Assembly (NCBI GenBank): GCA_008632985.1
Contig: QPGO01000061.1
Location: forward strand, 124,001 to 188,000
Source: Psammoneis japonica
Lineage: Eukaryota
Length of the DNA: 64,000 nt
Reading direction: 5' to 3'
Part shown: positions 2,657 to 50,760 of the stretch, piece after piece
Numbering within the stretch: the stretch's first letter is position 1
How the letters are laid out: each line of letters begins with the position of its first letter
Made by a program: the position numbers and the translations under genes
The notes under the pieces: generated by a model
Database searches by the model: none
Told to the model about the DNA's origin: nothing
What the model saw: the letters and a program-made list of their open reading frames with translations, nothing else

Positions 2657-2999
2657 TTTTTCTTGCCGTTCTAGAATGCCCCACTCTGAGTCAATTCCAA
2701 ACAGCCAATTGCGGATGTGAAGCAAGGATGAGATGGGGCAGCAACGATTCGCATTGAGTGGCAGGCATTGCGTGATGGCATTAAAATGCAACTCGTTTGT
2801 TGACAGGTGGGAGACACTGTAATGCAATGCCGAGCAACGACAAAAAACTGTGGAAGAACGAACGGCGTTTCTGCCATCGTCGTGTTGTTTGCACACGCAG
2901 AACACGCAGGGACATTTTTTCCACAATTGCGCCACAAACGATTGAATCATCAGTTGTTTTTGAGGCTTTTTACAAAAATGCATCATGTCGAAAAATCAA

Positions 3000-4720
3000 G
3001 GGGATTTGCACCCTAATTGTGACAGTCTGGCCATCTGTCAAGTTGCGTCAAAAAGGTGGCGCGGTGGAGTGGATTTGGACAGATTTGCAGCATTCATGTG
3101 AAAATCCAGAGCGGGCCACATTAGCAGGCCATTGGTGCTCACTTTGCTCACTGTTGTGGTGCACAACCCCTCCAGGCTTGCCACTGCAGTGTGTTGTTTT
3201 GCTTGCTGCTGCAGCCCTGTGGAGCATGGACATGGGCTGGCAGCAAGAAAGTGGCGCAAGTTGTGCAAACCGCCCACAACAAAAAAAAAAAGACTGCTGC
3301 CAGAGACTCGTTTTCTCATGATGTTGGAGGAATGACATCACAGTGTTCACTTGCACTTAAAAAAAGGGGTGGCTGGCCAGCGGGGCACAGACATCATTGT
3401 CTTGGTGTGCAGAAACTGAGAGAGACAACTCTGGGCAGCATGACACACATCCTCACCAGGAAGAAGTTTTGAGCTGCACCCCCGAGTGTGTTGAAATCTT
3501 GCCTGCAAACAACACCACAGTGCAAGCAAGTGTGTTGAAATCTTGCCTGCAAACAACACCACAGTGCAAGCAATCAAAGAATTGTCTCTGCTTGTCATCA
3601 GAGGAGAATGGCATGTGCTTGCCCTTGAATGAAAAAGTCAAAACGCAAAGAACATGCTCACCGCGCATGCAGTTTTCCGGAAAAGGAGTTTGGCACCAAC
3701 CAAGATCTGGTTGACATGTTGCTCTGCCCATGGAAGACCCAGCTCAGCCAGGGTGGTTGCCATCAAAATGAGTTTTGTGTCAGAAAATGGGTGTGAGCAT
3801 CTTTTGAGCATCGCCCGCACAAACTTGGCAAAACAAAAAAGAAATGGTTGAATTGGCTGCTCAGTGCAGGAGGAGTGCACCAATTTTAGACAGCACTGTG
3901 GTGCAAAGGCCTTGTCAATTTTTGACAGCATGGCGCAGGAACATTGGTGGAAACACACCCATGTGTCAGAACGACACCAAGGCTTTTGATGAGCTCCATC
4001 TGTCTTGATGTCATGTTGTGCCAGCAGGGCTGCAATTTGACAGCAACTTTTTCTCAGGTGTGGATTTGGGGCTCTAAACACACACCCCAATGCATGGAAA
4101 AATTGCCCAACTGATGGGGTTTGCCCTCAAACAACTGTGCAGCCAAGCACGCAGAGAGGCAGCCATGAGAGCAAAATTGTCAAGAGCACATGCTTTTCAG
4201 GGCTCACTTTGTGAGACACAATCATTGCAACATAAAGACAACCACTTTTGTGATGAATTGTCTGCAGCAATTCCAGCTCAATTTCATTGATCTCAGAGAA
4301 ATCTGCGCCAGGGAAGAGCCCTGGAGAGCTGCAGAGGTGTGTCTGTCATCGCGAGCTCTCTGACATGCATCATGCCCCCCCTCTGCTGTCCTCCATTTCC
4401 AGCACAAAAATGTCATGTTCCACTGGGGCATGTTGCAATTGTGTTCAATCTGGACATCCTTCTGGAGCAAAAACAGCCTCAAATTCCGGGTTGTCAGCAG
4501 CAACATGAAGCTGTTGGAGCCAGCCAAAACTGCTGGGTCCTGGGTGAAAAAGTGTCAATGCCATCAATTGATGCAATGTGTGGCACACCCACAACCTTGT
4601 TGCAAGTAGCCTTGAGAGAGGAAAAAGATGTGCTCTGCAGAACTGCCAAGCGTGATGTTGGATTGATGGGCATTGTGCGATTTCGCCGCTTTTTTCTTGT
4701 GAGTCAAGTCAGTCAGTCTC
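3000..4720. mobile_element. Degenerate TpA-depleted repeat/TE relic, family not identified
   Basis: Same TGCA-rich, TA-poor composition as the identified TE blocks; no recognisable domain. Confidence 0.35.
3487..3573. repeat. Two-copy tandem repeat, 44 bp unit
   Basis: gtgtgttgaaatcttgcctgcaaacaacaccacagtgcaagcaa twice in tandem. Confidence 0.85.
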
Positions 4721-13799: not shown

Positions 13800-16700
13800 T
13801 GCATGACATTTTCTGCACCACCAGCTTTTCAGCAGGAATGGAGGTGATCACCAGCCATTGCCAAAACAAAACCCCATGTGGGTTGCTGCCAAAGTCAACA
13901 CACTGTCAAAGGCATTTTGCAAAATGGATGCATTGTGTGCAAATGGGAAAGAAGGGCCACCCAATGAACTGTCCTTGTTGACTGCAGCAGTGAAGCCAGT
14001 GCATCCAACTGCCAGCTTGTTAAGATGGGAAACAATCTTCACATCATTGATTGGAGAACAGGAAAGGCCCAGCTCATTGGTTGGATGGGAAGTGTTTGCA
14101 ACATTGTTGGCAGAGCACATGCAGAAGCAATGCACTTGACCGGCACCACCCCCATTGGTTGCTCTCCAACTGCAGATAAAGTCTTGTCACTTCTGGTCCC
14201 CAAATGTTGGCCCTTGCACAAGGAGGACATGCATCAGCCGCCAAACACCACCCAAGTTTTCCATCACAAGGGGGGGGGCTCAGCCTGCAAGGCCTTCAAA
14301 TCTTCCAAGAGGAAAGACAACATGTCATGGCAAGCCTGCATGTTGGAGGAAGACAACCCATCACCCACTTGTCATTGTGAATTGTCTTTGTTCACATTGC
14401 CACTCTCATCCAGTGTGCCACTTGCACCCCCCTTGTCTGTGCTTGGTGTGAACCCAAGGTGATGCCAAGCACAATCATGCTCCCGCACATGCCTCTTGGC
14501 CAGAAGAATGCAAAACACAACCAGGGTTCAAGGGGATGCCTTTGATGGGCATCAGTGCCTGCCTGTCAGATCAGCATGGAAGCTGATGGGCAAGAGCAAG
14601 CCGTTCTTGCAAAGTCCTCAGGGAGGTCATTGCGTGTGTCGGAGTGCCATTTGTTGGACATGATCTTGCCAAGATTGTGCTTGTTGACAGAAATGAACTT
14701 GTGCAAACGTGCCTGCATGGACTGATGCACATTGAGATTGTGCTCGTCATCAAACATTGAGTGGGTGAACAAATCTCTCAACATGTCCCACATGCAGAAG
14801 CAAGTGACTTCCCATCCACCAATGATCCAAGTGTTGGGTTGGGGCAGGAAAACCTTCCTTCTTGTGGAGATTCTTTGCCAACAAGTCCCACTCAAGACAC
14901 TGGGAACAATCAAATTGCTGCTTCTTGCAAAATCATTGTAACAGGGCAAGCAACTGACAACAAAATTGATGGGCAGTGTCGGAATTGTCACACAGCGCAA
15001 TCAGCTCCAACAAAGCTTCCTCCATGAGTGAAAAGGTTGGTGGGTCAGGTGCCTTGTCCAAGGGATGTGGGTTGGCAGTGGTGGGAGGGAAGGATGGTGG
15101 ATCCAGGAGCAACATAGATTCTTCAGAAGACTCATCCAGAGGAAAGGACAGAGAAGCAGCAACAGTGCCAGGGAACATTTTGTAAGAGGAGTCATCATCA
15201 CGTTCATCATCTTCCTTGTTCTCCGCACATTCTGCGGGTGTGGCAAACTGGGCAGGTCATTGCCTCTGTTGAAGTCTGTGCTGGGGTTGGCTGATTCGTC
15301 TTCCTCATCAGGAGTGGCAGTGGATGACTGACAAGCAATTTGCTGTTCTTGGAAAACAAAAACGGCGGCTTGCAACAACTGGCTCAATTGAGTTGCAGCA
15401 GACATGCTGGGGTGGGCTGTGTTTTGCCTGCATTGGCAGCAATGGTGGTGAAAAGGCATGCTGAGCAAAGAGTCAAATTGGAAAAGGCAGGCTGCAGGAG
15501 TGTGATGAAACAATTTGATGCTTGTTTGCATTCATTTGTTGGCAAGCAGATGTCTGATTGATTTTTGAATCAAATTGTTGAGTGGACACTCCGTCATTTT
15601 TTAATGACACTTGGTTGGCATGCTGGCAACAGCCCCGTTGAAGAGTTGGCTGTGAAGAGACAATGCAGTTCATGGCACACACATGTCCAGTCATCAAAGA
15701 TGCACAGATTTGAATTGGATGGATGGTCTGTTTAAATTTGAGTGCAGATGTGCAGCCACAGTTTAAAAAAAATGGTGGCAAACGCCCTTTTCAGGCAAGC
15801 AAGAAAACATTAAAAAAGGGAAAAGACAACTCTTGCATGCACATCATTCACAAGACTCAACCACATCTGTCACCTCACTTCAGTGAACTTCAGCAAACAC
15901 TGGAAAAATTACTTTGGCAACAGTGGAGGATGATTGTCATTGTGGAGCAGCAGATGAGCTCCAGCGAATGGATGGCGGATCATGCCAAGGTCATGCAGGA
16001 CATGGCAAAGGTGAGAGAGCATGTCAAGGAAACATTGTGCCTCAGTGCCACACTCACATTCAACAACAAAGAAGTGGAGGAAATGGGAATGCTCTGCAGA
16101 GATTGTGAGCAGAACTGCACACCCAAGATGATGGATGGGATGCCACAGGAACTGCCCAAGCCGGAGCAAAAAATGCACCTGCACCACCTGTGGCTTACGA
16201 TGAAACAAAAAAAGATGCATCAGGAGTGGCTGGCAATTGAGAGGTCAAATGCGCACCAGGCACAGCATGGCAAGTTCCACAGCAAGTGCAAATGGAGGGT
16301 GCAACAGTGCAATTGCTGACAGCATTGTCACTTGTTTTCCCTGCTGCAAATGAAGCTCTTTGTGCATGCTGCAATGAAGACAATTGCATCATGCCATCTG
16401 CAGAAAAATTCCAAGATTGCTTGGGAAACTGGGCTTTGCAGATGGTGCTCTGTGACCACATGCTGTGTGATCCGATTGAAGCAGACACACACTGGAAAGA
16501 ATTCATTTCCAAGGACAAAAGGACAGGCGCAGCATGCACTGAGAGGCGTTTGCCCACAAGCTCCTCAAGAACAACTGCAATGCAAGGCATGCAGACTGCA
16601 AGAGCCGGAACAAGGATGAGACTTTTGTGTCAGATTACGATGTGAAGTTGCTTGACAATGGAGGCCCAGTGGACCAAGAGGGGGAAGCAAGGGCTTGTGC

Positions 16701-17750
16701 AAGACAATCACACCAGCCAAGGAGATGGACAACCAGGACAAGAGCATGTTTGTGCTGCCACAGAAAGATCCACAAGAGCGGTTGTCAGAGGAAGGAGGTC
16801 TGTCTGCACAAGAACTGAAACAGAGGTTCAAGCAAACAAGGGATGCAATGGTCAAGAAGATCAGAAATGAGCCAAAGACTGCAGCACAAGTCACAGCTTT
16901 GATCAAGGTTACAAAAGTGCTCATTGACAGCCAAAACAATGTGGTTGCATCCAGCAAGAAGAGAGAGGTTGTCAAGAAACTCAAGCATTTCATGGCGGCA
17001 AAGCCAAAGGACACAGACACAAATGCGGGACCAAGGAAGCAAAAGACACTGAGGAAGAGCAAAGGGTGGTCACCAAATGCCAACAAGTTCTTTGTTGACA
17101 TGGTCATGGAGATCAAGCAAGATGTTGCAAGAGGACAACTTGGGCAGTGGGAAGAGCTCTATAGAGCCATCGCACCAAGCAAGATCAATGGGTGGCAGAA
17201 GAAGCACAAGAAGGCTCTGATGATGAAGACAACCACCAGGTCAACTGTGCCAAAACATGTGAACTGAAGTTGGCAGCGGTTCAGGCAAGATTCACTCAGC
17301 GGCGATCACTCACATGCACACTTGTTGACAATCAATTGCAGCAGCGACGTGCAACAAATGGGTGGGAAAATGGAAATGATTGTTTGCACATGCAAGTCAA
17401 CCAAATGAGTTTTACACCAAATGTTGAAAACTGATCCAAGCACTGCATTTGGTTGTCACTCAGTCAGCAACAACAAGACAAGTGAAGCCCCACAAAGCAA
17501 CTTGTTTGGCATTGCAACTGATTGAGTTGCAGCTCACTTGTTGGGATTGACCACAGTTTGTTGATGTCACCAGACACTTGTTGGTTTGCATGGACATTTG
17601 TTTGTTCTTAATCACACCCATTTTTGTGGCAAATGGGTGTGATTTGTGTCAAGTGGCAATGATTCATCACAAATCAATTTATGTTCCGACACTGCAACAT
17701 TGTCCACTGGTCCGACCACAAGACAATTCATGAAAATGGATCTCTGATGC
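13800..17750 (-). mobile_element. Degenerate Plavaka-like DNA transposon, copy 1 (transposase relic on -, accessory ORF on +)
   Basis: Inverted homology to 55370-59915. The transposase relic reads ...SNKWHSDTRNDLPEDF... followed by a degenerate PI-L-ADxTG...AWxHLGFxP segment. ORF 16695-17267 is homologous to 56013-56765. Confidence 0.65.
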
Positions 17751-20175: not shown

Positions 20176-20681
20176 GACATGTTCCAGCCCTGGGTGGGAG
20201 CTCGCATTGCTGATGTGTGACACAAACAATTTTTAACATCCGCTGTGTGTTTTGCATGCCCATTTCTGCATGTGACACTCCAAAAAAATTCTCCAGACTC
20301 ACTGTTTTGCAAAGCCCCAGACATTTTGCACAGTGCACCCACAGAATCAACAGCGTGCCAGTGGCATTCTTCAATGTCTGAGGAGTGTAACTGGCCAAGT
20401 GAAAAATGATGTGCTTTTGCGAAGCCCCGGACATTTTGCACAACGCACCCACAGAATCAACAGCATGCCAGTGGCGTTCTTCAATGTCTGAGGAGTGCAA
20501 CTGGCCACGTGAAAAATGATGTGCTTTGATCATGGACAAGTTTGTGCATTTGCAAAATTGCCTCATTTTCTGTCAGCGATCATTGACATTTTCATTGCCT
20601 GACAATTTTGCTGCAGAGCTCGCACGCAGAATTCTGCAGGCCCAATGTCACACGGATTCTCACCTGCATCTGGAATGCATC
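20176..20681 (+). mobile_element. Degenerate MITE, family B, with an internal ~117 bp tandem duplication
   Basis: Ends gacatgttccagccctgggtggga... and ...ggcccaatgtcacacggattctcacctgcatctggaatgcatc are homologous to the ends of 37227-37619. TSD not preserved. Confidence 0.7.
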
Positions 20682-21018
20682 AGAAGAGGAGGTGGTTTGA
20701 GAGCTGTGATTTCAACAGCAAGGACACTGTGCGATGCAGGAGAGGCAGTGTTTTGTGCTGGTGTGAGAGCCATGCCAACGTCAGCGGTTGAGGGGCGAGT
20801 GAGGGAAAAGATCTGCAGCTTTGTGGTGCACTGAAGAGGAATCAGTGCACAGTCCGGACAGTGGGCCAATGATGTTGGTTGAGCAACAGCAAATGGCCCA
20901 TTGCAAATTGCATTGGAAATTGTGGTTTTGTGGCCCAAAGACTGACAACAGAAGGCATGAACTGAAAGTTTGACGGGTCACGAATGCAAAAGACCATGAC
21001 CAGTCATCTTGGCCTGGA

Positions 21019-21180
21019 TGCAAGGTCTGACGAGATGAAGACTTCAGTGATGACAAAACTGTGAGCGAAAGATCGAGGTGACGAGGGTCGCTTTCAGCGA
21101 AGCCCGTTGCAACTGCTTCCATTGTGTCCAACAGGTCCATCAATGCCGCACATCAGAAAAATGAGGTGCGAGACACTGCA
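21019..21180 (-). repeat. 3' LTR of Gypsy element
   Basis: TGCA...TGCA termini; aligns without gaps to 26242-26403. Confidence 0.9.
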
Positions 21181-21409
21181 CTCTTCCCTTCCATGATTCG
21201 AGTGTCGAGAATCATGCGGGACTCAAAAAATTTAAATTCCAATGGATGAGGATAGAAGGGAAACCCAAATGTTGGGGAGAAAACCCTTGACCTCAGGTGT
21301 GATGTGGTACAACGCGACGCATGTTCAATCGTTCTGTCACATGAGGTGTGCGTTGGACCGCAAGCGCACCGTTGGCGTGCACTTGAACGACAGGATGTGG
21401 ACCGTGAGC

Positions 21410-24400
21410 TCATGGCTTGAGCTTGGTTGGGTCGACAGCCTTGAGCAGAACTTGTCCGCCAACTTGAAAATCGCAGGATCGGCGTTCAGCGTTGGCTCGA
21501 CGGAGATTCGCATTGATGATCGCTTGTCGGTGTTCTTGAATGGCAGCAAGATTGGCTGGGACCGGTGAGTCGAGAATCATGTCACGTTGAAAAACCATGG
21601 CACCGGGTGAAATCTTAAGAGCACGAGAAACCGCACATCGCATTGCATGCATGGCGGTTGCCAATGCATTGTCCACTGGTTGATTGGCCTGCTCAACATT
21701 CTGTGGAGGACAAACATGAAGCAAAGTGCGCAAGACATTTCCAACAGTTTGATGCATGCGCTCGCATGCCGCATTGGCTTGTGGATTTCGCGACGCAGTC
21801 GGAGCGTCTTCCACTCCTGCTCGTTGCAATGACAATTGAAAGTCCTCTCCAATGAATTCTCCACCATTGTCATGGATGCACCGGTTGGGACGAGGACAAC
21901 GAGACAACCAACAATTTTCAAATTGTTGAGCAATGTGAGATGAGGTTTTGTTGTCGATGCGAATGAGTTCAGTCACATTCGAAACGGTGTCAACACAAGT
22001 CAAAGCGTTGAACTCGATTTCATGGTTTTGAATTTCAATCTTCCAGGGACCGATGAGATCAACCGCAACTTCCGTCCATGGCAACAAAGGCGCTTCTCGT
22101 TCAGGCAGGTCCCCACATCCAGGGCCTAAAGTTTTCAAACGTTGACAATCAGCACAATGAAATCTTTCACAGGATTGACGAAGGGCAGGATGACAGAAAT
22201 GTGCGCCAACAGTGGAATGCATTCGGTGCACTCCTGCATGTCCCAAAATCCCATGATGCCATCGTATGATGTCATGCAGCAACGCCGTTGGAACACAAAT
22301 TTTCCACACAGTCGGAGGATCATTCGGTCGAGCACGATGACAAATTACAGGACGCTGATTCACACATTCCACAACGAAGCGTTCTGGATGTTGTTGTCGC
22401 ACATTGTTCAGCTCCACGTCGATGAATTGGTGTTCTTGAATTCGTTGCATGGTTGCAGGGTTTTGCATTTCCTCGAGAGAAGGACAGTTCAAAAATGATT
22501 CACACAATTCGGGGTCGTCCACGACAGAAGAGTAAAATGGAGATGGTTCTTCACGACGACAGGAAAAATGAGACACACGGTTTTGGTCGTCCAGTTCTTC
22601 TTCACGCGGCAGCATGGCAGGGTTGATCGCCTTAAAATCAATCAGCTTGCCCTTGTTAGGAGCACACTTCCCTTCCGCAGGAGGGTCCATGCGCGGCAAT
22701 CTTGAAAAACAATCCGCTGAGAGATTGTCTTTGCCATCAACGTGTTCGAAAGTTGGGGCAAAATCTTCCAAGAAGAGTCGCCACCTGAGAACTCGTTGAG
22801 AATTGAGCGCACGAAAGGTGAGATTTTTATGATCCGTAAAAACAGTGCAGTCAGCTCCAAACAACATGCTTCGAAATTCTTTGAAACACATCACCACCGC
22901 CAATGATTCTTTTTCAATCGTAGAGCAGTTCTGTTGTGCTGTGCTGAGTTTCCGGGACCAGCAAGCCACTGGTTTCCCGTCTTGCACAATTGCGGCCCCC
23001 ATCTGACAGTCCGAAGAGTCAGCACAAATGTGGAATGGCTTGTTGTGATTCGGGTAGACCCAAAGGGTGTCGTCCAGCATCAAGGTTTTCACATCTTCAA
23101 AGGCTCGTTGACATTCAGGGGTCCATTCCAACTTGCTCTTGCCTGTCAACTTCGTGAGTGGAGCGAGCACGTGTGAGCGACGAGGCCACATGTTGCGACA
23201 ACAAGTTGCCGCACCGATAAACGATCGTAGTTCCGTCACAGTTTTAGGTGGTTGCATTCGTAGCACCGCTTCCACTTTCTTCTTCCACGGTCGGACTCCT
23301 GCAGGCGTGAGCCAATGGCCCAAAAAATCCGTCTCTTGGACACACCATTCGCACTTGAGTGGGTTAATTTTCAGGTTGTTCTCTTCTAGTCTGGACAACA
23401 GCTCATCGAGTCGATGCACATGAGCATCAAACAAATCATCAAATTGAGCAATGTCATCGATGTAAGTTTCAACATCGATTCCTTTTGCCACTTTTTCAAT
23501 GATGGCTTGAGCAACATCGGGAGAGGTTTTCAAACCCATGGCCAATCGACAATGTCGAAATTTCCCAAACGGAGCAACAATGGCACACAAATCCTTGGAT
23601 TCTTCGTCAAGCTCGACATGACAATAAAACACAGTGAGGTCCAACTTGGTCAAGCACTTGCATCCCGAGCGTCGGTGAACAACGTCTTGAATGATCGGCA
23701 GAGGATGGACCTTTCGTTTGAGCACCTTGTTCAACTCTCGAAAATCAGATGCCCATCGAACTCGTCCATCCTTTTTGGGAGTTACAAAAGTTCCGGCTGC
23801 CCATTCAGTTGGTCCCACTGGTTCCAGTGCGCCAATGTTGCATGGATGTTGTGGTTCTTTCTTAAAAACGGCTTCATCCCTCTTGGACACTTCGCAAGCC
23901 TTAGAATGGAAGGGAACAGCGTTGGGATCAACTTCCAAGTGAACAGTCTCATGCGGATGTTCACCAAGCGTTCCATCAAAGAGGGTTTCATGCTTTTCAA
24001 GCACAGCCTGCAGCTCATCACGTTGTTCTTGAGTCAAGTGAGTTTGAGCTTGCGCCACTTTCGCGGGTGACACTTTCTCGTATTTGGCGTCCATCATAAA
24101 AGATTGTCCGAAGGCTTCCTCATCGTCTTCGTCCTCTCCGTCGTCTTCCAGTGCATCCAACCAATTCTGAACTGAGTTCCAATGATTGGATTGCTTCATT
24201 GGGATCGACGTTTCCAACCACTTTGTCATTCCAAATCGAAAATCAAGCACGATTCCGGCTTTCGACAAAAAGTCTTGTCCCAAAATTAAATCACACTTGC
24301 ATGGGGCATCAAAAACTTGAGCCGCAATGCCATCGACTTGTTTTGACTTGTCAAATTCTGGCAAGATCAAGTCCTTCATAACAACGTGTCGGGAGGATTC

Positions 24401-24472
24401 ATGTCGTCCGGCTGCCGTCTGAAAGCTCAACCATCCTTCATCGTTCATGGTTGGATTCGCTCCCTTCGGCAA
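21410..24472 (-). CDS. pol: Gypsy Pol (end of protease, RT, RNase H, integrase); probably non-functional
   Basis: KKDGRVRWASDFRELN, ETYIDD, RNase H ADSSD/TDHKNL, integrase H..H..C..C, VAVDLIGP, DNGGEF and NPQANAACER. The protease DSG motif (VPLDSGG) is in the upstream frame 24476-24775. Confidence 0.93.
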   Translation of the reverse strand: MPKGANPTMNDEGWLSFQTAAGRHESSRHVVMKDLILPEFDKSKQVDGIAAQVFDAPCKCDLILGQDFLSKAGIVLDFRFGMTKWLETSIPMKQSNHWNSVQNWLDALEDDGEDEDDEEAFGQSFMMDAKYEKVSPAKVAQAQTHLTQEQRDELQAVLEKHETLFDGTLGEHPHETVHLEVDPNAVPFHSKACEVSKRDEAVFKKEPQHPCNIGALEPVGPTEWAAGTFVTPKKDGRVRWASDFRELNKVLKRKVHPLPIIQDVVHRRSGCKCLTKLDLTVFYCHVELDEESKDLCAIVAPFGKFRHCRLAMGLKTSPDVAQAIIEKVAKGIDVETYIDDIAQFDDLFDAHVHRLDELLSRLEENNLKINPLKCEWCVQETDFLGHWLTPAGVRPWKKKVEAVLRMQPPKTVTELRSFIGAATCCRNMWPRRSHVLAPLTKLTGKSKLEWTPECQRAFEDVKTLMLDDTLWVYPNHNKPFHICADSSDCQMGAAIVQDGKPVACWSRKLSTAQQNCSTIEKESLAVVMCFKEFRSMLFGADCTVFTDHKNLTFRALNSQRVLRWRLFLEDFAPTFEHVDGKDNLSADCFSRLPRMDPPAEGKCAPNKGKLIDFKAINPAMLPREEELDDQNRVSHFSCRREEPSPFYSSVVDDPELCESFLNCPSLEEMQNPATMQRIQEHQFIDVELNNVRQQHPERFVVECVNQRPVICHRARPNDPPTVWKICVPTALLHDIIRWHHGILGHAGVHRMHSTVGAHFCHPALRQSCERFHCADCQRLKTLGPGCGDLPEREAPLLPWTEVAVDLIGPWKIEIQNHEIEFNALTCVDTVSNVTELIRIDNKTSSHIAQQFENCWLSRCPRPNRCIHDNGGEFIGEDFQLSLQRAGVEDAPTASRNPQANAACERMHQTVGNVLRTLLHVCPPQNVEQANQPVDNALATAMHAMRCAVSRALKISPGAMVFQRDMILDSPVPANLAAIQEHRQAIINANLRRANAERRSCDFQVGGQVLLKAVDPTKLKP

Positions 24473-24787
24473 AACTCAAGAATGAACAAGAGTGTTGGTG
24501 CCTCCTGAATCCAATGGCACTCGCAACACTCGCTTGCTCTCTTGATTTTGAATGGTGCGCACCGCCATCAACGTCGTTGGCACCACATTCAATGGTTTGG
24601 GAGTCGCAGTTTTAGGGGTTGGCACAGCGCACTCCAAAACGCCGCCCAATTTCTCTTCATTCACAGCATGAGATTCCATCAGGTCTCCCACATTGTCATC
24701 AACATTAAAACACACATTTTCTTCACGATCACGCGAAACATAAAAAGATTGAGCGACACGCTCTGACTCAGGCACTTCCGTCCCTTG

Positions 24788-26000
24788 TCAATTACACCAA
24801 CTTCGTTGACCTTGATGGGTGCGACCATTCTGATCGCATCCATTTCCACCTCGCATCTCACGAGGCCCTCCTTGATCAAAATGGTGCGACTCCATTTGCC
24901 AGCCACCAGGAGGAGCTGCTCCAGCCGGATTTCCACAGCCTTGGGCATCACCGTTGGCTTGGGTGCCATTTTGATTTTGGTGATGGGATCCATTCCCTTG
25001 AGAATTCTGGGAGTCATCACAATTGCCGTAACCTCGGCCTCCATGTCCTCCTTGATTGCCACAATTGCCACGTCCTCGACCTTGGAAGTTGCCACGACCA
25101 CCTCGACCTTGGGGTCCTCCACCTTGGCAGTTTCCTCGGCCTCCACCACGACCTCCGCTATGACCACCACGGTCGGACCTCGGTCGACAGTTTTGGCTTT
25201 CTGGATTCAAAATGCAGTCCTTCCACTTGTGGTCGTGATTCGCATGCACCGGGCATCTAGATTCTGGATCCGTTCCACCACCATTGCCACGAGAGCATCT
25301 TGAAGCTTGAGACGAAGCACTGTTGCTTTTCCTCTTCTTGTCCTGCTTCTTGTTGCCACTCTTGTCAGCAAAAGATTTCTCGTTGTTCCTGCAACCAATG
25401 ATCTCAGCGAGAGCATCGTTCGCCATCACTCGTCCTGCTCGAGTGTGCATCTCACGCCACGGATGAGGGAAGCCATCGAATGTCATCTTTTTCTTCTGAG
25501 CTTCGTTGACTTGAGGAGCATTTCCTGGAAGTTTGTTGGAGCACCGAATCAAGGTTTCCATGCGATCTGCATGTGCCTGCACTTCAGATTTGAGTGGTTT
25601 TTTCAAAGTTGGCAAACATTCAATCATCGCATCACGCGCTTCATTGTCACAATGAGACAAGTAAAAACGATTGATTTCCTGATCAAAACGCTCGACGGTT
25701 TTATCGGCATCGTCAATTGCATTGGTCAAGTTCGCCCACTTGTCCTCTGCAGCATCCGCAAGCACTTCCTCGAAATTTTCGAACAACTCCTCGCCAGCAG
25801 TGCACTCCAATTTCACAGCAATTTTCCGAAAACGATCCTCAACGAATGACAATGCTTCAACACCATGAGTGCCATCAAAACGCGGACACTTTTTTGTACG
25901 AGCACTGCGTCATCATGCGATTGGGTCAATTTCACTTCCTCCAAGTCAGAATGCTCAAATTCAGCTTCACAGCTGATGCAAGGCTCCTTCAACGATTCAC
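24788..26000 (-). CDS. gag: Gypsy Gag (frameshifted near 25850)
   Basis: Upstream of pol, with zinc knuckle CPVHANHDHKWKDC and an RGG-rich tail. Confidence 0.8.
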
Positions 26001-26241
26001 TCATCATGAAAAAGGGAATGCAATTGTTCAACAGTCCTCTCCAGGGACTCTGCCTTTGACTCCAAATGATGCACTCGGCTCGCCAAATTCTGTTCGTGTC
26101 GTTTGCGTTGTTGCACTTGTTTCTGGTGCTCAATGGCCCAAACTGCTGCTCTTGCGCGCAGTTCTCTTTTCTCACGTTTGGTCAATTTGTTTGCATTGTT
26201 CCCAGTCTCCATCCAGTTCTTTGAATCGACTGCAATTACAG

Positions 26242-26403
26242 CGCAAGGTCTAACGAGATAAAGACTTCAGTGATGACAAAATTGTGAGCGAAAGACGGAG
26301 GTGACGAGGGTCGCTTTCAGCGAAGCCCGTTGCAACGGCTTCCGTCATGTCCAATGGGTTCATTGACACCATGCATCAGAAAAATGAGGTGCAAGACACT
26401 GCA
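26242..26403 (-). repeat. 5' LTR of Gypsy element
   Basis: Aligns to 21019-21180 and is followed by TSD CTGGA. Confidence 0.9.
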
Positions 26404-27594
26404 CTGGAGGCACCCTCCTCCAGAAAGATCCACTTCAAAGACCCCCCAAAAGGTGCGGAGCTCTCTGCGCCTCTGACGTGCAGCACTTCAAAGTCACGGC
26501 TTTCTTGAACTACTGCAACACGTCAGTGATGATAATGCCGGCATTTTAAGGCTAAATCTTTAGCACACCACTTCAATGTACTGTGCTGTACATGTGTTTT
26601 GATGATGCGCATTCGATGTTATTTATGCACCTCTGAAAGTACTTCAAAGTGTCACGTTGTTGATAAAAATCTTTTTGTACTTCTTTTGTACGGAAAAAAG
26701 ATACGGACCGCGACGCCGCGACGTCAGCGTCACTTGTACTTCTTTTGTACGCAGTCCCATTTTCTACAGCATAAAAAGATGCGGACCGCGATGCGACGTC
26801 CTCATTTTTACTTTTTCGAGTCGCAAAAAAAGGTCACAGTACGATGCAGCTCACGAAGTTCCTTACCACCTCGCTCCCACTTTGCGTTCCTGCCTTCGTC
26901 ACTGGCGGGCACCTCCGCAACACCGTTCAGGTGAGCATCCTGCGACAGAAATTGAAAATCGACGTGCATCAGCTTGAGAATCAGAACCAAGGCATCGCGC
27001 CATTGGCTCCTTTGTCGAGAATGTCTTGGCGACTCATCTCACGTCCATCTCATTTGCTGCCATTGTTCTTGCGGGAGAAGGAGGGAAACTGTGACAGCTC
27101 CAACAACGTGGAGATGATCGTCGAACGTCTCTTGCAGGACAACACGACGAAGATGAACACGATGAACATGAACACGACGACCTCTTCTTCAGGATCTTCG
27201 AGCTGCTCTTCAGGATCTTCGGGCTCTTCTTAAAAATCTTTGGACTCTGACTCAGAGACACAGTTTTGGTCTTTGTCTTCTTGATGAGACAGAGGACAAT
27301 GAATGAGGTGTTGTGGCTTTCAACATGCTTGCAGACTCATGTGGTTTGGCAGGCAACGCTTGATGCCTCAAACAAATGACTGTGTTCATGTTTCGGTTCG
27401 TTTTCGTGTTGGCATTTAATTGTGTGTAGACTGTGTCAGGTGAGGCACTCGGTCATTGTGTTTGGGACATTGCTGCAAGTTTGACTGGATCCCTTCGTGC
27501 ACTGGTGTGCTCAGTCAAAATGGTGATTGCAAGTTGGCTGTAAGTCCAGGTTGCGCGTTCATTTCCATGACTCCACATGATGAACTGAAGACGA

Positions 27595-35986: not shown

Positions 35987-36383
35987 GACGTGTTCCAATC
36001 CCAGGTGGGACTCCTTGTGACATTGGGCCCGCACAATTCTACGTGCAAGCTCTGTGTCAAAATTGTCAATCAACAAAAACACACATGATCACCAACAGAA
36101 AAAGAGGCAATTTTACGAACGCATCTCCTCCTTCACACTCAGAGTGCATGAACAACAGTTTGCATGGGCACATTCCACAGACATTGAAGAACACACCCAG
36201 TGCATTTTCATTGTCACAAATGTTGAAAATAGAAAGCCTTTGGCTTCACAAAATGGGAAGCATGAAACAATTTCGTAGAATGTCACACGTGGCCATCTAC
36301 GTGCGCAACATGCGGCACGATCCAAAAAACTGTTGATGTCACAGTTCAGCACTGCGAGGTCCCACCCAGAGCTGGAACGCGTC
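35987..36383 (-). mobile_element. MITE family B
   Basis: TIRs gacgtgttcca / ctggaacgcgtc; 4 bp TSD AGGC; splits the copia integrase. Confidence 0.9.
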
Positions 36384-37226
36384 AGGCCTTGATGCTGTTG
36401 AGTTGCCTTGCGAGTTGAGTTTGGTCCAGCAGGTGTCTTGACTTGTTTTGCCTGGATGCACGTGGGGCAAATGTCAAGAACTGGGTTGGCATGGTGGAAC
36501 TCAGGAACCCCTTTGATGTTCTTGTGAGCATGGTGCAAACAATGATTGCTGGGATGTCCAAGGCGTTGGTGCCAAAGGAGACATTCAGTCTCAACTTTGA
36601 GAGAGCGGACCGGGGTGGAACTTGGCAGAGGTGATGACAGGTGTGCAATGGAACAGCATTGTGTCGGAAACAACTCAGTGTCTGTCATCCATGGATCAGA
36701 CGGCGTTTGCTGAACATTGGCGCAGAAGATTGCACATTGGCATGCATTGTCAATGTCATCAACCGGAGTCAAGTCAGGAGTTGCAGGCGCATCAAGGGAG
36801 CATTGCTCAGAGATGGTGGGACTGGGGGCTGGGTAAAAACTTTTCCATGTCGGAGAACACCATGGACAGCCACTTTTGGGCATCTGTCGAAGCAGTTTGC
36901 ATGCAGGTTCCATCGGCATGAGTCTTCTTGAGAGACTCAGAATGAATGGCTTTCGGTGTAAGACCAGAAGCCCATGCAAAATCGCGTTCATCAATCAAGG
37001 TGGAACGCAGGCTGGGGTGGCAGAAGGTGCGCGCGAGAAGGAAGCCATCAGTGTTTGCAGCAGGCACTTGCAAACAACCGAAGCCATGAGGGACCATGTC
37101 AGAGCCTTTGGCAGCAGGAAGCATCTTCAAAGGACAGGGATTATCCGGGCCAAATGGGGTGCAGGCATGAAGGAGGTGTTTGTCTCCTGTGCAGGATGCC
37201 CAAGCACCAGTGTCAATTTGTGCACG

Positions 37227-37619
37227 GACGCGTTCCAGGTCTAGGTGGGACCTCGCACTGCTGAACTGTGACATCGATAGTTTTTTGAGTCTCGTCGTAT
37301 GTCGCGCACGTAGATTTCTACGTGATTTTTTCGATATTTTGTGTCATTTTACGGTACATTTATTGAGCGATCCGTCCAACAACTTTTGACATTTTTTGTT
37401 ACAGCGCGATTCTATAATGTCTTAAGAATCGCGTAGGGCAGGCGAAGTTGCAAAAACGTCGAGTGGTAAGAGGCATAATTGTACCACAAACTTGGCCGTT
37501 TATTTGATGTTGAAGATAAATGTGTCCTCCATTAATTAAATTCTCGTACTACGGAGCTCGCACGTAGAATTCTACGGGCCCAATGTCACACGGAGTCCCA
37601 CCTAGGGCTGGAACGCGTC
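37227..37619 (+). mobile_element. MITE family B (young, TpA-rich)
   Basis: Perfect 12 bp TIRs gacgcgttccag / ctggaacgcgtc; 4 bp TSD CACG; inserted just upstream of the copia protease motif. Confidence 0.93.
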
Positions 37620-40600
37620 CACGGCACATCGTTGAATCACGCATTACATGGTTGATGGGGACAACAGGAGCAGTCAAGGATTCAAATGCCGTGGGTGCTT
37701 TGGGAGGAGAAAAATCGGGGAGACACGCACTGCACTCAAAGGTGATGGGTGTTGGCTGGTGTCCATGTCAACGCACTCAAAATCTTGGTCGTGATCACTG
37801 GACAGAGGGACATCATTCTCTTTGATGGAGGGTTCATGAGAAGGCGTTTCCCTCCCCCAATTGGCAGCATCAGGGTGATCATCCGCAATGGTCCTGAGAT
37901 CCAGAGCTCCAGTCTTTGTTGAGGTTGACAGAAGGTCAGCAAATGAGACATGTGAAAGAGGCATTTCAGTGGGAGGCAGCAAGTCTGTGAGATCCTCGTT
38001 CGCAGTCACCCTGCTTGCATGCATTTTTGGATTGAGAGGAGATGGGCGGCATTGTTCATCCAAATGCAACAATGGCCCTGGGAAAAATCCTTTTAAAGGT
38101 TTGCCATCCTCAAGTGCATCTCGGGCACGTTGGTCACGTTGAAGGAATTGGCAGAATTGGATGAGGTGAGCACGCAGATGCTCGGCATTGTTCAAGACCA
38201 GGCACTCATGGAACAAGTGGCTGTCACCACAGACAGCACATGGTTGAGTCTGTGCAACAGCAAGGGATGACTTGATCCTGCAGATGCAAGCCTCGCAAAT
38301 GCCGTGCAGTGCTTGTGCCTTGTCATCTGGAGGAATTTCCATGGTGGCAACCTCGTTTGCAAAGCACTCCACAGTTTCCACAGGTTCTTCCACAGGAGGA
38401 TGATCAGGTTCCATTGGAGTTTCCTGAACAATCGTGGGTGGATCTGGCACCTCATCCTCAGGCAACAAATCAAGGGGGCTCGAAGAGGAGCTGCAAGAGG
38501 AGGGTTGGCCGGGTTCTGGCTGTGGAGGCGTCATGCAGGGCATTTGGGAGGATCCTTGAGACAAAGAGCAGGACTGTCTGGTTTCTTGAGGATCGTGGCA
38601 ATCGTCTTGGCAATCTTCTTCTGAGTGAATTTGTGTTGCTTGCTCTTGTCTTCCCTGGCATCGACTGTCTTTCGATGCAGGTGCTCTCCACATCAGGTGT
38701 TGCTGAGAAAGATGTCTGGCTCACCAGGATCATCAAGAGAGGCATCAACGTTGGAAATGATGGCCCGCAGCTGGAGGAAATCCCTGAATGGAGCACAGCA
38801 ACTGAGGATTGTGAGATTGTTTTGATGTGGGCAGCTCTTGATCAGTTCATGTGGGCGCTTGGTCCAGATTGGGAGAATGTCAAGTGGGGTCATCTTGAGG
38901 GCAGTGTGTCAATCTCCACAGCATTGGTGAACAACATCGGGGCACTTGGGGAATCAGCTGGGAAAATCCCAACCTTGTGGACATGCTGAAAAAGTGCAAG
39001 CTTCATGCGGTCAAGAGGTGCACGCGTGCGGAGTGGCACAGGTCATCAGTCGGGTTGTTGCCACTCGTGAAACCCCAGTTTCCACCATCCTTGATGAAAC
39101 ACCACAGAGGATGCATGTGTGTGCCACAAGCCAAGGCTTGTTGGGTCACTGCAGTGTGCCATGCTTGGATTCCTTGAGGTGAAATGTCATCACATTTCAA
39201 AGGGTCACAAAGAAATGATTTGGCATCCCAATCAGTGCGATGGACAAAGAGTGAACCATCAGCAAGAATGAGGCGTTCAGTGCCATCTTCACAGTGAAAA
39301 TTTCCCGACTTGCAAGGTGCTGGTGACTTCCCCAACACTGCTTTCCCGGCTTCCTTGCATTGATTGCGGGCTGGTGCATCCTTTGGAAGTCCTTTTGGAT
39401 TGAAGGCACGTGTGGCACTGGTGGTTGTCGAGAAAGAAACCGCAGCAGCAGTGGTCTTGGTGGAAGGTGTGGGAGGTGGTGAAGAAGCCGCAGAGGTCTT
39501 CAATGCATTGCTCACAGCTTGCTCAACTCTTTTGGACCAGGCAAATGAGCAGCTAAGGCCTCAGCAAAATCTTCAGGAGTCAGGCCTGCAGTGGGGGTCG
39601 ATTGAGATGCAGAACTTGAAGGAGACGCTGGCGGTGGGTGTGGGGCATCAGAGACATCATCCCAACACAGACAACCCTCAAAACCAGGACAAAGGAAGAG
39701 ACTGATGGTCCCAACACATGTCGTCATGGCATCTTGATTGTCTGAGATTGCTTTGATCATGTGGCCTTCTGAAGATTTGTGTGGTTCAGATGGATCGGAG
39801 CATCTTGAGGGGCAGCCACAAAGATGGGAGCTTTGTCAATGAGTGGTCCAATCTGTTTGAGGTCCTCACAATTCTACGCAAGCGCCAGTGGGATTGTCCC
39901 ATGTGAGAGTGTGGTGGCATGCCAACCTCCTTGGGCACTTTGGGACGTCAGGCAGTTGCGCCAATGACAGAGAAACCAAACGGTGTTGGAGGGGATGCTC
40001 TGTTGTGTCTGCGTTCGGGGGAGCGGTGCCGCCATGGTGTCGCATCTCTTTGCATTTTCCATCCCGATGTCAGCATGTTTTCTGCGCTAAATTCTACGCG
40101 ATTCAGCAATTTTCCGAGTCAGTTCTTTCAGCACAAATTTCATGTGCAATTCCACGCATTTGGCCAGAATTTTGAGTCAACGACCGTGTCAGGTTTATCC
40201 TCTTGTTCTTCTCACCAACGCACTTCCTTGAGTTTTCTTTCCAATGCACTGCAATTCATGATGGACATTCTGCGGTTTTCCAAAGTGGGTCGCCACAAGT
40301 CTTCCAGGTGGCAGCATTTCCAAGTCTCGATGTTGCTCCTCTTGCTCTTTGACATTGCAGCTTCAGTGCACAATTTCTGTGCAATTCCACGCATGACAGA
40401 AATTTCATCCAACAACTCCGATCATCATTTCCTTTCCTTCGTTGGGGTCTGTGTTGGACTTTCTTGGGTGTTTTTCATCCCAGGAATTTCTCTCACATTC
40501 GCTTCAAGCATGTTGTCTTCGGAGACAGACACGTGTTCAGTTTTCTGCAGTGTTTGTTTTGGTGTCTCCCAAGTGGTGTGGCTGGGCTTGTCCATTCTTT

Positions 40601-42479
40601 GAGGCACAGCAACTGTGGTTGCCGTGTGACAAGCATCCGGTCAGTTGCTGTTCTGACTTGAAACAAACAGCCTCTTTCTGACGATGTGTTGACGGCATTG
40701 CCTTCGGACAATGTGTCAATGGCGTTGTCTTTCTGACAATGTTTGACAGTGCTTCAATTGTCCCTGCCGCCCTTTGTGGGCACTGTGGAATGTGGGTTGG
40801 TGTGGGTGGTGGCGAGGCAGCAGCAAAACAGATTTCCAGTTTTGTTGTTTGAGGTCCTCAGTTAAGGCAGTTTGAGGGATGATCAGATCATGAACAATCT
40901 TGTGACGGATGGTTGCGATTGCATCAGGCTTGAGGCCTGGAGGAGCAAATCCATCCAGAACATCTTCAGGAGCAGGTGTCATGTCGGAGTGAAGTTCATT
41001 CAGGTGAGAATGGGCATCAGGTGAGCAATTTTGCGGTCTGAATTTGACCTGTGTTGACTTGATCTTGGTCAAATTGACGGAAGTTTGCTCAGTCGGCACC
41101 ATGGCTGTGCAGGAAAAAAATCAAAATCCTGTGCAGAGCACTGGCATGTGGTCTGCGGTGGTCATGATGATCACAAATCAAGTGAGAAAAACAGCTGTGA
41201 CAAAGATGATGATTTCAATGGAGAAATGTCACCAAATCACACAGAGAACGTTGCACGCAGTTGCACTGAGCAAGACAAACAGCACGCTGCTGTGCTCATA
41301 ACCTCATGGACCAGTGGCATCGGGACGATCTAACTGACATCTGGGACAGATGACAATTGTGTGCTGGATGAGAAAGAAAGAAAGCAGCAAAGAGAAATCA
41401 TTGGATCTCTCAATGCTGTCTGTGCCAGTCTGTCCGAGACAAGGGAGTGCACTCCCCATCTCGGATGTCTGTCAGAAATGACCAAGCAGCTTGTGTGTTG
41501 TGGACACAACTGCAATTGACTTGGAAAGTGCTCACTTGAATGCACCATGTGCAGAGAAGATGGGTTTGAAGGTGGAGCCAAGTGATTGTGGCAAGTTCAA
41601 ATGGTGTGCATTGGTTGTGGCAAAAGCATTTTGTGGATTGAAGAGTGCAAGGTTTTTGTGGCAACCATCATTTTCTTCTGCTTTGTGAGATGCAGGTTTT
41701 GAGCTGATGCATGCAGCCAGACCCAAATGTGCACATGTGCAAGCAGCAGCCCATGAGGACAGACACTGGCACTGCAAGATGCCATTGGTCTGTTTGGATG
41801 ATGTGTTGATTTGTGTTGCATCAAGGCAAGTTGGTTGTAAAGTTTGTTGCCAAGCATTGCAAGACGGAGCCTGGGAATGAAGGTCAGCCCAAGACTTGTC
41901 TGGGAACGACTGCAGAAAAGATCCAGGCACAGGATGGCTGCAATGGTTTGGGCCAGTTTGCCAAGAGACTGCATCAAGAATGCAGTCAAGACAGTGGAGG
42001 ATTTGCTGAGCAAGAATGGAGATGGCGCAGTTCTGAAGAATGAAGTGAAAGATCCATTCCCAGTGAAGTGCAAACCAGAGTCAGACATGACAGATGAGCT
42101 GGGTCCCAAATTGACATCCTGACACTTGCAGCTCATTGGCATTGCAAGATGGGCAATTGAGTTGGGCTGTGTTGGTGTTTTGTTTGAAGCATCTTTGATT
42201 TCTCAACATCAGGCAAATCCAAGGAAGGGTCATTTGGAAGGCTTGTGCTGCACATTTGCACACATGAAGAAGCATCTGAGCAGGGGAACAAAACTTTGAA
42301 CTCGCCACATCTTTTGCACAGGCACCAGATCTTGCACCACCATTCACGCAATCTTTCTCTTGGGAGAGATGAATCTGCAGTGCTGACAGGTGCCATTGGA
42401 ACAGGTTGAACCTTGGTGATCTCCAGCAGATGTGACCTGTGCTGCAAAGAATGTTCAAAACGTCATCTTGTCTTCCAAA

Positions 42480-48800: not shown

Positions 48801-50760
48801 GTGTGGAATCACGCTGCCATCGTGGGCCAGACGACGGGCCAGTGTGCTTCACACGGATGCTCTCTCAGCATCCTTCTGGAATTGCCTGAGACCTGGAGCC
48901 ACGCCCTCCTGTGGTCGTGCTTCCCAGGTGCGTGTTAACAACACTGCGTTGCCACGTGCAAGAGGCTTGTGCACGGTCTCGCCGTGTTGTCCAGCAGCGA
49001 GGCACACTGCACGTGGTGACTGGGGCAATTGCGAATGCGACAAGAACTGCCTTCATGCAGAATGCCCATGTCTGGAGTGCCTTCCGGACTGGTCATTCCT
49101 CGGACTCGAGATCCTCGATGATTGAGGCCAGAGCATTGGCGCAGGGTGCTTTCTTGTTGGAGTCTTTTGTTCTGCTTTCGGATTCTTGAGTGCTTTGCGA
49201 AGTCGACAACCTTTGTCTCCCGGATCATCAGGTGAGTGAGCCACCCAAGCAGAGTGGTGCTTGCACCAACAATGGTCTCGTCCCTTCTGACTCTTGTGAT
49301 GACACTTGTGCCCGTTGACAGTCTTCGCAGGGTCGCTGTCCTTTGGCGGAGTCTTCTTCCAGGCTTCATCCTGTTTCTTGGCGTGCTTCGGGTTCTTGCT
49401 TTTGTTCTTGGAGTTCTGCTTGCCACCACCTCCCTTGGACTTGCTGGGACCACTCTTGAGAGCCTTGGAGAGCTTGAGGTTGTAATCCTTGATGGTCTCC
49501 ACTTCCGTGGTGAGTGCAACAATCCTTTCCTGCTCAGGAGAGAGTGCTCCCCACTTGTCTGCTCGATCGAGGTTCGTGCACTTGTTGAGTGCTAGCTGCA
49601 TGACTTGTTCCGGGTTGCAGTCCTCACCATCATCATGCTTCTGTTCCATGTCAGCCGTGCACTTGACAAATGCTTGATTGCTGGCTGCTGTGTGTCCTTT
49701 GAACAGGTTGACCACAAGGTCATCGCAGTCTTCTCCCCTGGCTCTGAGTCCGTCATGGTTGAGTTTGACGCACTTGTTGAACTCCTCGATGTTCGAGTTG
49801 CAGGTCGACATGTGTGAGTCAAGGCTGGACAAGTTCTCGCGGAAGCAGTTTGCGGTTGAGCGAGTGTCCACGATGGCCTTCTGAGCAGGCAGTTTAAAGA
49901 ACAGTGCACTGACTTGTGCTCCGTTGATCTTGTGTTGCTTGCTTTCGGCGATGATCTTGTCTCCAGCTTCCACAGTTAGGGTCTGAGAGATTGCCTCAGC
50001 CATTTGGACTTGGTTCTGGGCTTGCCTTGACTGAGCAGCCATGCAGGCAGTGGCGTGGTCGCGCACGTTTTGTGCAGCAAGTCTGCCACACTTGGTGATC
50101 AAGTCTTGATCGATTCCATTGCTGTCGGGGATCGATGTGATGTTTCCCGTTCCTGACTTCCATCCTGACTCAGAATTTGTTGAGACCTTCAGAGTCTCCA
50201 TTGAACTCGTGAGGCAGTGGAGCTGTAGCAGCACTCCAGAGCTTGAGACCTTGCAAGACGCCGCAGTCCATCCAGTCATCTGGACGGTGCTGACCAGGGG
50301 TCAATGCGAATGTGGGTCCTGCAGCAGGTGCTGCAGGAGGAACCGGAGGCACTGGAGGTGCTGGAGGTGCACCTCCTCCACCACCGCCTCCACCACCACC
50401 ACCTCCTGGAGGGACTGGTGGAACCGGTGGAACTGGTGGTGTTGGCATGGGTGCGCCTGCTGGAGTGGCAGCAGGGGCAGCAGCGGGAGCTGCAGCAGGA
50501 GCTGAAGCAGGAGCTCCAGTTGCAGCAGACGAGGTGCGGGTGGCCACCATTGTTGGGTGGTTTTGGGTCTCGATCAACAGCTGGCTTGAAACCGAAGTTG
50601 CAAAGAAGCAGGTCACAGAGGAAGCGTGTGGGATTCTACCTGGGATGCAGGTCCCATCTGTAGAATGTGCTGCTGACAATCAGTGCAAGGCACTAAAAGC
50701 CAGCAAAACAGCAATGAGTTGTCTCACCAACTCGTGCTTGGTTGAAACCATGAGCTGAAA
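48800..50760 (-). mobile_element. CoDi-type Ty1/copia gag relic
   Basis: ORFs 50170-50679 and 49053-50279 (frameshifted): TFALTPGQ...GLKLWSAATAPL...VVNLFKGH...WCKHHSAWVAHSPDD..C. Confidence 0.65.

Follow-up and report, generated by a model that had tools for sequence, protein, structure and literature searches.

How does the polymerase gene of a transposon come to hold a long open reading frame (ORF) with hardly a tyrosine in it, and in which direction did the underlying mutations run? The question is raised by a stretch of 64,000 nucleotides from Psammoneis japonica (assembly GCA_008632985.1, contig QPGO01000061.1, positions 124,001 to 188,000), here called the window, whose own numbering is used throughout, and which carries a Ty3/gypsy element on its minus strand. 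An initial annotation had placed an open Gypsy Pol of 1020 codons with five tyrosines within 21410-25852, and had proposed that the altered residues in its conserved motifs record the loss of the dinucleotide TA (TpA) by transition to TG or CA. The tyrosine count stands, while the frame has 1021 codons and is only part of a longer Pol, and the extent was too narrow, since long terminal repeats (LTRs) and a target-site duplication give an element of 5385 bp (21019-26403, minus strand), a Ty3/gypsy LTR retrotransposon that is dead although complete in structure. We regard it as very probable that this dead element carries a TA-specific A:T to G:C pattern, in the direction of TA loss, that arose at the DNA level after integration.

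Results

Direction of change at conserved Pol positions

The Pol frame was aligned with 40 of its first 44 relatives (P0026, P0031, P0035 and P0041 were dropped for query coverage below 95%), and the 508 columns in which at least 70% of the 40 agreed were taken as conserved. The window matches the consensus in 425 of these columns and differs in 83, and each difference was scored codon by codon under 16 strand-symmetric models, in which an ancestral dinucleotide gives its transition product. Change from TA to TG or CA accounts for 35 of the 83 differences, followed by AT to AC or GT with 17 (partly the same events), GT or AC to GC with 14, and CG to TG or CA with 3, and the reverse change from TG or CA to TA, which is the direction of repeat-induced point mutation (RIP), accounts for none. 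When the consensus residues were permuted among the mismatch columns 2000 times, the TA model explained a mean of 6.6 differences (sd 2.2, maximum 15), and in 26 intact relatives, scored on their own DNA, TA-type changes made up 86 of 2437 (3.5%, 0-8% in each). This control was drawn from 80 fetched metagenomic loci, of which 30 near-full-length ones were tried and 26 of those were free of stops. The alignment to intact Gypsy Pol proteins and the count of substitutions thus agree with the proposed direction, which is loss of TA.

The 35 TA-type changes comprise Tyr to Cys (12) and Tyr to His (6), changes in which T is the preceding base (Thr to Ala 5, Ile to Val 3, Met to Val 2, Lys to Glu 1), a single Ile to Met, and changes by way of NTA to NCA (Leu to Pro 2, Val to Ala 2, Leu to Ser 1). 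They are concentrated among the changes that are private to the window: 27 of the 37 found in none of the 40 relatives are TA-type, against 8 of the remaining 46, and of the deficit of 368 bits in summed column log-odds, 200 fall on TA-type columns.

The composition of the proteins is shifted in the same sense. The five Tyr of the Pol frame (residues 132, 284, 338, 474 and 648) amount to 0.49%, compared with 3.38 +/- 0.35% in the 40 aligned relatives (z -8.3), and Cys (4.02% vs 2.00%, z +8.2) and His (4.11% vs 2.91%, z +3.2) are raised. The gag-like ORF has 0.54% Tyr and 4.29% Cys, compared with 3.32 +/- 1.01% and 1.24 +/- 0.40% in 28 relatives. At the 23 conserved Tyr columns of Pol the window has 12 Cys, 6 His, 4 Tyr and 1 Phe; the 26 intact relatives each retain 17-22 of the 23, with only 3 Cys or His cells overall, and at the 18 columns with Tyr to Cys or His change, the 40 aligned relatives have the window's residue in 6 of 720 cells, so that the refuting case named in the initial annotation, relatives with the same Cys or His residues, does not apply. 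All 13 altered motifs quoted in the initial annotation are present, the ten gypsy ones on the minus strand from 21887 to 24520, and the canonical residues given for them there agree with the alignment, whose consensus has Tyr, Leu or Thr at the expected positions (PCxYDxILG, KVYPLP, GYKYFTKLD, GKYQYxRL, IYTDASDYQMG, PVAYWSRKL, NYSTMEKELL, SRYPRP, KKELxHL and LFDSGG).

Changes after integration in the two LTRs

Both LTRs of an element are copied from a single template and are identical at integration, and therefore differences between them date from after that event. Here a 163-nt direct repeat, with copies 5223 bp apart, was resolved into two 162-bp LTRs that differ at 21 of 162 positions (87% identity, or 96% when the TA and CG classes are excluded). 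Of these positions, 10 belong to five dinucleotides that read TG in one repeat and CA in its partner; at two sites the 5' LTR has TA where the 3' LTR has CA, a further three sites oppose CG to TG, and the last six positions fall into other kinds. TG facing CA at the same site implies separate hits in each LTR, on opposite strands, so that the changes took place after integration, in DNA and on both strands, and RNA editing before reverse transcription is excluded as their main cause. The element has lost about 88% of its expected TA with CpG still at 89% of expectation, and TA loss in it is much faster than CpG decay. As a consequence, LTR divergence is unusable for dating insertions here.

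Dinucleotide composition of the element and its surroundings

The element holds 42 TA where its base composition predicts 354, and 284 CG where 318 are expected (0.89), and on its plus strand both transition products are in excess (TG 423 vs 329 expected, CA 529 vs 343 expected). On the sense strand of Pol the ratios of observed to expected counts (o/e) are 0.126 for TA, 1.57 for TG and 1.24 for CA, compared with 0.72 +/- 0.13 (minimum 0.445), 1.23 and 1.13 in the homologous DNA of the 80 metagenomic relatives. None of these 80 loci was TA-poor, a count that gives no support to absence elsewhere, because one of the two search patterns demanded a Tyr.

Across the whole window TA o/e is 0.226, and it falls to 0.03-0.16 in transposon-like blocks. 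ORFs with host domains in Pfam (enoyl-CoA hydratase, DEAD-box helicase, glycosyltransferase 7, sulfotransferase and TspO) have a TA o/e of 0.41-0.56 and 2.2-4.5% Tyr, and transposon-like ORFs have 0.02-0.28 and 0-1.3%, respectively. The host genes are long and intron-free, which does not fit the intron-rich alga Bigelowiella natans; by protein look-up the DEAD-box helicase is eukaryotic, and the glycosyltransferase returned bacterial and viral look-alikes. Upstream of the 5' LTR the first TA stands at 26511 and is followed by normal density up to 26864 (20 observed, 29.2 expected). On the side of the 3' LTR the element adjoins an older block (13.5-21.0 kb) in which both TA and CG have been lost, and at this edge CG steps from 12 vs 28.2 expected to 30 vs 32.6 expected.

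The initial annotation had seen the same pattern in a copia reverse transcriptase, a Tc1 relic and a CoDi gag, which the composition bears out and the family names only in part. A DDE_3 match at 52101-52355 (26.7 bits, just under the Pfam cut-off of 28.6; E 5.7e-6) agrees with a Tc1-type relic, and the block that holds it has 8 TA vs 69.7 expected, and so TA loss is not confined to retroelements. The presumed CoDi gag is probably the ORF at 49053-50300, which has a single Tyr in 415 amino acids and no family match that would confirm the name. For the presumed copia piece (41482-41685) there is no reverse-transcriptase match in Pfam. A gag_pre-integrs domain of the copia type (E 6.9e-9) was observed on the minus strand at 36113-36994; its frame contains 0.7% Tyr and 7.8% Cys, and the block around it (36113-42202) has 44 TA vs 388.6 expected.

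Copies elsewhere in the genome

A public sequencing run matched to the window contains 0.46 of the element's sampled words. Its contigs over the element have a summed depth of about 1000-4000, compared with 54-97 in the flanks, which indicates that the gypsy family is multi-copy. The other copies differ from the window at 223 places (200 transitions and 23 transversions), of which the 40 best-supported positions were grouped into 34 sites. At 13 of the 34 sites the window has TG or CA where other copies have CG, and these sites are CpG decay private to the window copy; five sites pair TG with CA, and another five exchange TA with TG or with CA.

Stop codons and open frames

In the genetic code, change of TA to TG or CA never makes an in-frame stop, since TAA, which becomes TGA, is a stop before and after, and the same change eliminates TAA and TAG from every frame. 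Because TA loss cannot generate stops, a dead gene may be left with an open frame. The element agrees with this expectation: each of the five stops of the Pol frame is TGA, there are 3.4 TAA and 1.5 TAG per kb and strand, as opposed to 13.9 and 11.3 in relatives, and six-frame ORFs of at least 150 amino acids are found at 1.49 per kb, compared with 0.72 in relatives. When searched with tblastn, intact relatives run through the stop at 24476-24478 in a single frame, from 24745 to 21302. Judged from this alignment, the full Pol has about 1150 codons, and the 1021-codon frame is the segment of it bounded by two in-frame TGA stops. The first of these stops probably derives from ordinary CpG decay, as most other copies carry a different first base (24478), giving CGA, and the second (21410-21412), which is aligned to a consensus Arg column, may possibly have the same origin. 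Long antisense or overlapping open frames of 175-226 amino acids were also observed in the element, at 23390-24070 on the plus strand and at 24679-25303 on both strands, and are there because TAA and TAG have been lost in all frames. Transposons with TA erased and with long open frames in all six frames are prone to mis-annotation as genes.

Neighbouring bases of the remaining TA

For the context of the remaining TA, 89 TA-poor and 30 normal 500-nt bins of the window were compared. The contexts of the 228 surviving TAs differ from those of the 628 TAs of normal bins (chi2 142, 9 degrees of freedom, p 4e-26): TTAA is enriched 4.5-fold and CTAA/TTAG 2.9-fold, ATAC/GTAT is at 0.1, and ATAT is absent. 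The per-strand survival ratio rises with the base 3' of the A from 0.34 for T, 0.72 for C and 1.19 for G to 2.05 for A, and the order of the ten folded contexts is the one expected under an additive T>C>G>A model. A similar trend is found when the element's 42 survivors are set against the contexts of the relatives (TTAA 2.75-fold, ATAT 0). Tyr codons that follow a T all became TG (7 of 7), compared with 5 TG and 6 CA among the other Tyr codons (Fisher p 0.038); relatives already show TG above CA on the sense strand. These observations are suggestive of a process that prefers T-A-Y (Y, pyrimidine), and such a preference, if it holds, is a fingerprint for locating the enzyme.

Discussion

The closest known counterpart was described in Bigelowiella natans, in which integrated DNA of NCLDV (giant viruses; nucleocytoplasmic large DNA viruses) and of virophages undergoes TpA-restricted hypermutation; mutation-accumulation lines gave a direct measure of its rate, about 6e-7 per site per generation (Mettrop et al., bioRxiv 10.64898/2026.01.13.699255). 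According to the available part of that preprint, the changes are almost only A to G and T to C at TpA, giving TpG or CpA; they are limited to foreign or mobile DNA, with TpA depletion paired with CpA and TpG enrichment, TpA-poor genes are enriched for reverse-transcriptase and DDE domains, lines are reported to switch the process on and off, and an ADAT2-like candidate is proposed (bioRxiv 10.64898/2026.01.13.699255). The same traits are found in our element, namely A:T to G:C change at TpA on either strand, mobile DNA hit with host genes spared, and a gain of TG and CA. The two cases differ in that the main targets in B. natans are integrated viruses with moderate depletion (Rho TpA 0.45), whereas we see only the end state, on LTR and DNA transposons in a different, intron-poor eukaryote and far closer to saturation (0.12 for the element, 0.03-0.07 in other blocks), and in that the part of the preprint available holds no context beyond the dinucleotide, no test on an LTR pair and no stop-codon consequence. 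In a full-text search of the published literature this preprint was the only description of the TpA signature that we found, and the element adds a very clean case of this newly described hypermutation, from a different lineage and affecting transposons. Diatoms have a RID-related DNMT4 of unknown function, for which the available text notes no such mutation pattern (PMC9998398).

Other systems share some of these properties. Both here and in fungal RIP, mutation is confined to repeated or mobile DNA, kills transposons by transitions restricted to a single dinucleotide context and results in a strongly skewed dinucleotide composition. In Neurospora and other fungi, RIP turns CpA into TpA (C to T) and makes TA and stop codons, whereas here TA is destroyed, the change is A:T to G:C, and no stops arise. 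Fungal RIP was rejected as a candidate, with the reverse model at 0 of 83, TA depleted and not enriched, and all stops TGA. As for the duplication that triggers RIP, the gypsy family is multi-copy by depth, yet the window contains no second copy of a TA-poor patch close to the element (26865-27540). CpG decay, in which 5-methylcytosine is deaminated, also converts a palindromic dinucleotide into TG and CA, and it is active here as well (3 LTR differences, 13 of the 34 best-supported inter-copy sites), but it starts from CG, offers no route from a Tyr codon to one for Cys or His, and explains only 3 of the 83 changes. The ADAR and ADAT/TadA enzymes are alike in their A-to-inosine (A to I) chemistry with U or T before the target, and unlike in that their known main substrate is RNA. 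In tRNA, A34 is preceded by an invariant U33, and U33-A34 would fit a T-A rule.

In the explanation that we favour, a DNA-level process turned some 88-90% of the element's TpA into TpG or CpA after integration, on both strands, separately on each LTR and near saturation, with neighbouring host genes spared. Tyr codons (TAY) thereby became Cys (TGY) or His (CAY) codons, and the same rule predicts the changes seen wherever a TA lies within or across the edge of a codon for Leu, Ile, Val, Thr, Met or Lys. The putative agent is an enzyme that would deaminate the adenine of 5'-T-A-3' in DNA (A to I, then G), with preference for T-A-Y, and that may be aimed, in defence of the genome, at the chromatin of transposons or repeats. 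We hold the case for an enzymatic adenine-deaminase defence to be about evenly balanced; adenine deamination, with inosine read as G, would be the simplest chemistry, as has also been proposed for B. natans in the available text of the preprint.

Several observations weigh against this reading or parts of it. The 48 changes out of 83 that are not TA-type look, from the alignment, like ordinary family divergence. TG-vs-CA differences between the LTRs could in principle also derive from an ancestral CG, an origin that we discount because CG is not depleted in the element and only 3 LTR differences are CG-type, and because the protein comparison independently shows TA as the lost dinucleotide; a double hit on one LTR CpG should be rare (3 of about 10 CpG per LTR differ). 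Near the element, the patch at 26865-27540 (0.7 kb, TA 3 vs 42.9 expected, CG 32 vs 40.9) is TA-poor as well, with 350 bp of normal DNA between it and the gypsy LTR; it gave no repeat within the window and no match to a recognised family. The 102-bp TA-free flank beside the 5' LTR falls short of significance (P 0.07), and we claim no leakage from it. The T-A-Y preference was derived by comparing survivors with baselines of different composition, a test for a gain of TGN products decides neither way because the base composition of the relatives differs (G+C 0.435 vs 0.482), strand choice at Tyr codons of Pol and gag matches T-A-Y in only 12 of 18 informative cases (hand tally), and the sense-strand excess of A to G at Tyr codons is not significant (12 vs 6, p 0.24). 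The data cover a 64-kb window of the genome, in which no enzyme, rate or targeting signal was seen, and the sequencing run, whose platform is not on record, is possibly the assembly's own source.

Adenine chemistry is not established either, because TA is a palindrome and A to G after T on one strand is T to C before A on the other. The sequence therefore fits equally well a thymine chemistry, in which the T of 5'-T-A-3' is modified, for example by JBP/TET-like oxidation to 5-hydroxymethyl- or 5-formyl-uracil, mispairs with G and becomes C with no adenine deaminase involved. Thymine modification at TpA is present in some protists, and we consider this explanation rather unlikely, with the B. 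natans authors favouring adenine deamination and an ADAT2-like candidate in the available part of their preprint, which is likewise a hypothesis. If no dedicated defence existed and TpA decayed passively and fast in silent chromatin, owing to defective repair or to a lesion that depends on sequence context, this would explain why TA depletion follows transposon blocks, many of them depleted of CpG too, and why older blocks have lost both dinucleotides, as time-dependent decay of heterochromatin would give. What makes this improbable is that the element's TA is mostly gone while its CpG is largely retained, and that, once the TA and CG classes are set aside, just 6 of 162 LTR positions differ, which puts TA loss far ahead of the best-known passive decay; our literature search turned up no passive lesion of such specificity, and to our knowledge none is known.

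Three further explanations fare worse. Since the element is a retroelement and ADAR enzymes favour U before the edited A (bioRxiv 10.64898/2026.01.13.699255, available part), an ADAR-like A-to-I editing of transposon RNA before reverse transcription, with the edited copy integrating, might be considered, and among polarised changes A to G exceeds T to C on the sense strand by 24 to 11 (hand tally). Such editing would be shared by both LTRs, which is contradicted by the five LTR sites with TG vs CA and the two with TA vs CA; changes lie on both strands, the block with the DDE_3 relic of a DNA transposon is similarly depleted and older non-coding blocks to the same extent, and this origin is very improbable. 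The same holds for a sequencing artefact, in which modified TA in transposon DNA would be misread as TG or CA by a signal-based base-caller: strand-dependent miscalls should give random TG or CA per site and copy, and the platforms of both the assembly and the run are not on record, but across TA-poor stretches run contigs show 0 and 1 differences from the window, run depth in the flanks is even (54-66), the 1021-codon frame is free of indel noise, CpG-type and other inter-copy differences stand beside the TA-type ones, and in B. natans newly arising mutations were measured that bear the same signature, according to the available text. That low Tyr and TA are native to the gypsy lineage or to host codon usage has next to no probability, and is refuted by Tyr contents of 2.56-4.48% across the best 120 of 801 Pol relatives, by a TA o/e of at least 0.445 in the DNA of all 80 relatives, and by host genes in the window that are normal for Tyr and TA.

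Returning to the proposed TA-directed mutation, the locus is a clean test case, with a complete element, relatives that give the ancestral residues and an LTR pair that shows the hits after integration. If the process is enzymatic, it stands beside RIP and APOBEC editing as their A:T-directed counterpart and gives cells a third means of destroying invading DNA through mutation, which would now be known from two unrelated eukaryotes, in the second of them at transposons and near saturation. More tentatively, a near-saturating DNA editor that reads T-A-Y may be a defence against transposons and viruses common to distant protists, such as this intron-poor eukaryote and the rhizarian B. natans, and may possibly be an ADAT/TadA-type deaminase re-aimed from tRNA (U33-A34) to chromatin; it would kill genes without stops and leave genomes of long, open, dead frames that are called as genes.

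Structure of the element and other sequences in the window

The features of the element are given in Table 1, in which nucleotide coordinates of domains were converted from residue ranges of the Pol frame. The order of Pol domains (protease, reverse transcriptase, RNase H, integrase) is that of Ty3/gypsy elements, with rve below threshold.

Table 1. Features of the Ty3/gypsy element, listed from its 5' end in window coordinates
Feature	Position	Strand	Basis or remark
Target-site duplication, upstream copy, 5 bp, TCCAG (minus-strand reading)	26404..26408	-	Same 5-mer abuts both LTRs on the outside
5' LTR, 162 bp, starts with TG, 2 TA left	26242..26403	-	Direct repeat and register
N-terminal gag part, broken by several TGA stops	25910-26015	-	
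gag-like ORF, 373 amino acids, 2 Tyr	24788..25909	-	37 relatives at E<=1e-5; no Pfam family
N-terminal Pol / protease part, in frame with the 1021-codon ORF	24479..24745	-	tblastn of intact relatives
VPLDSGG protease motif	24503-24520	-	Translation; DSGG
Internal in-frame TGA within Pol	24476..24478	-	CGA in most other copies (sequencing run)
Open 1021-codon Pol frame, closing TGA at 21410-21412	21410..24475	-	
RVT_1	23312-23779 (residues 233-388)	-	Pfam
RNase H (RT_RNaseH)	22760-23125 (residues 451-572)	-	Pfam
Integrase_H2C2	22130-22294 (residues 728-782)	-	Pfam
rve	21782-22039 (residues 813-898)	-	25.8 bits, under the 32.6-bit Pfam cut-off
Pol C-terminal tail past the second internal TGA, closing TGA at 21293-21295	21293..21409	-	Relatives align in frame to 21302
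3' LTR, 162 bp, TG...CA, 0 TA left	21019..21180	-	
Target-site duplication, downstream copy	21014..21018	-	

Beside the element, at 20305-20524, stands a tandem pair of 110-nt units with 93% identity, which is probably a satellite-like repeat, a likelihood that is raised by very high run depth (summed about 83,000 in 20500-20716). Two assembly gaps (152 N) at 19.9-20.1 kb lie inside the old TA- and CG-poor block that adjoins the element. Another element is present as an inverted repeat pair (13800-17749 and 55372-59915) of about 75% identity, depleted of both TA and CG, in which 104 TG-vs-CA double mismatches in 4075 aligned positions make up 44% of adjacent double mismatches; their origin from TA or CG is ambiguous because CG is also depleted there. 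On the minus strand at 914-2995, an open frame of 693 amino acids matches DUF4116 weakly (23.4 bits, against a cut-off of 24.9); with 0.4% Tyr, 14 TA vs 131.7 expected and near-normal CG, it resembles a multi-copy or foreign gene in which TA was likewise erased recently, and not a host gene.

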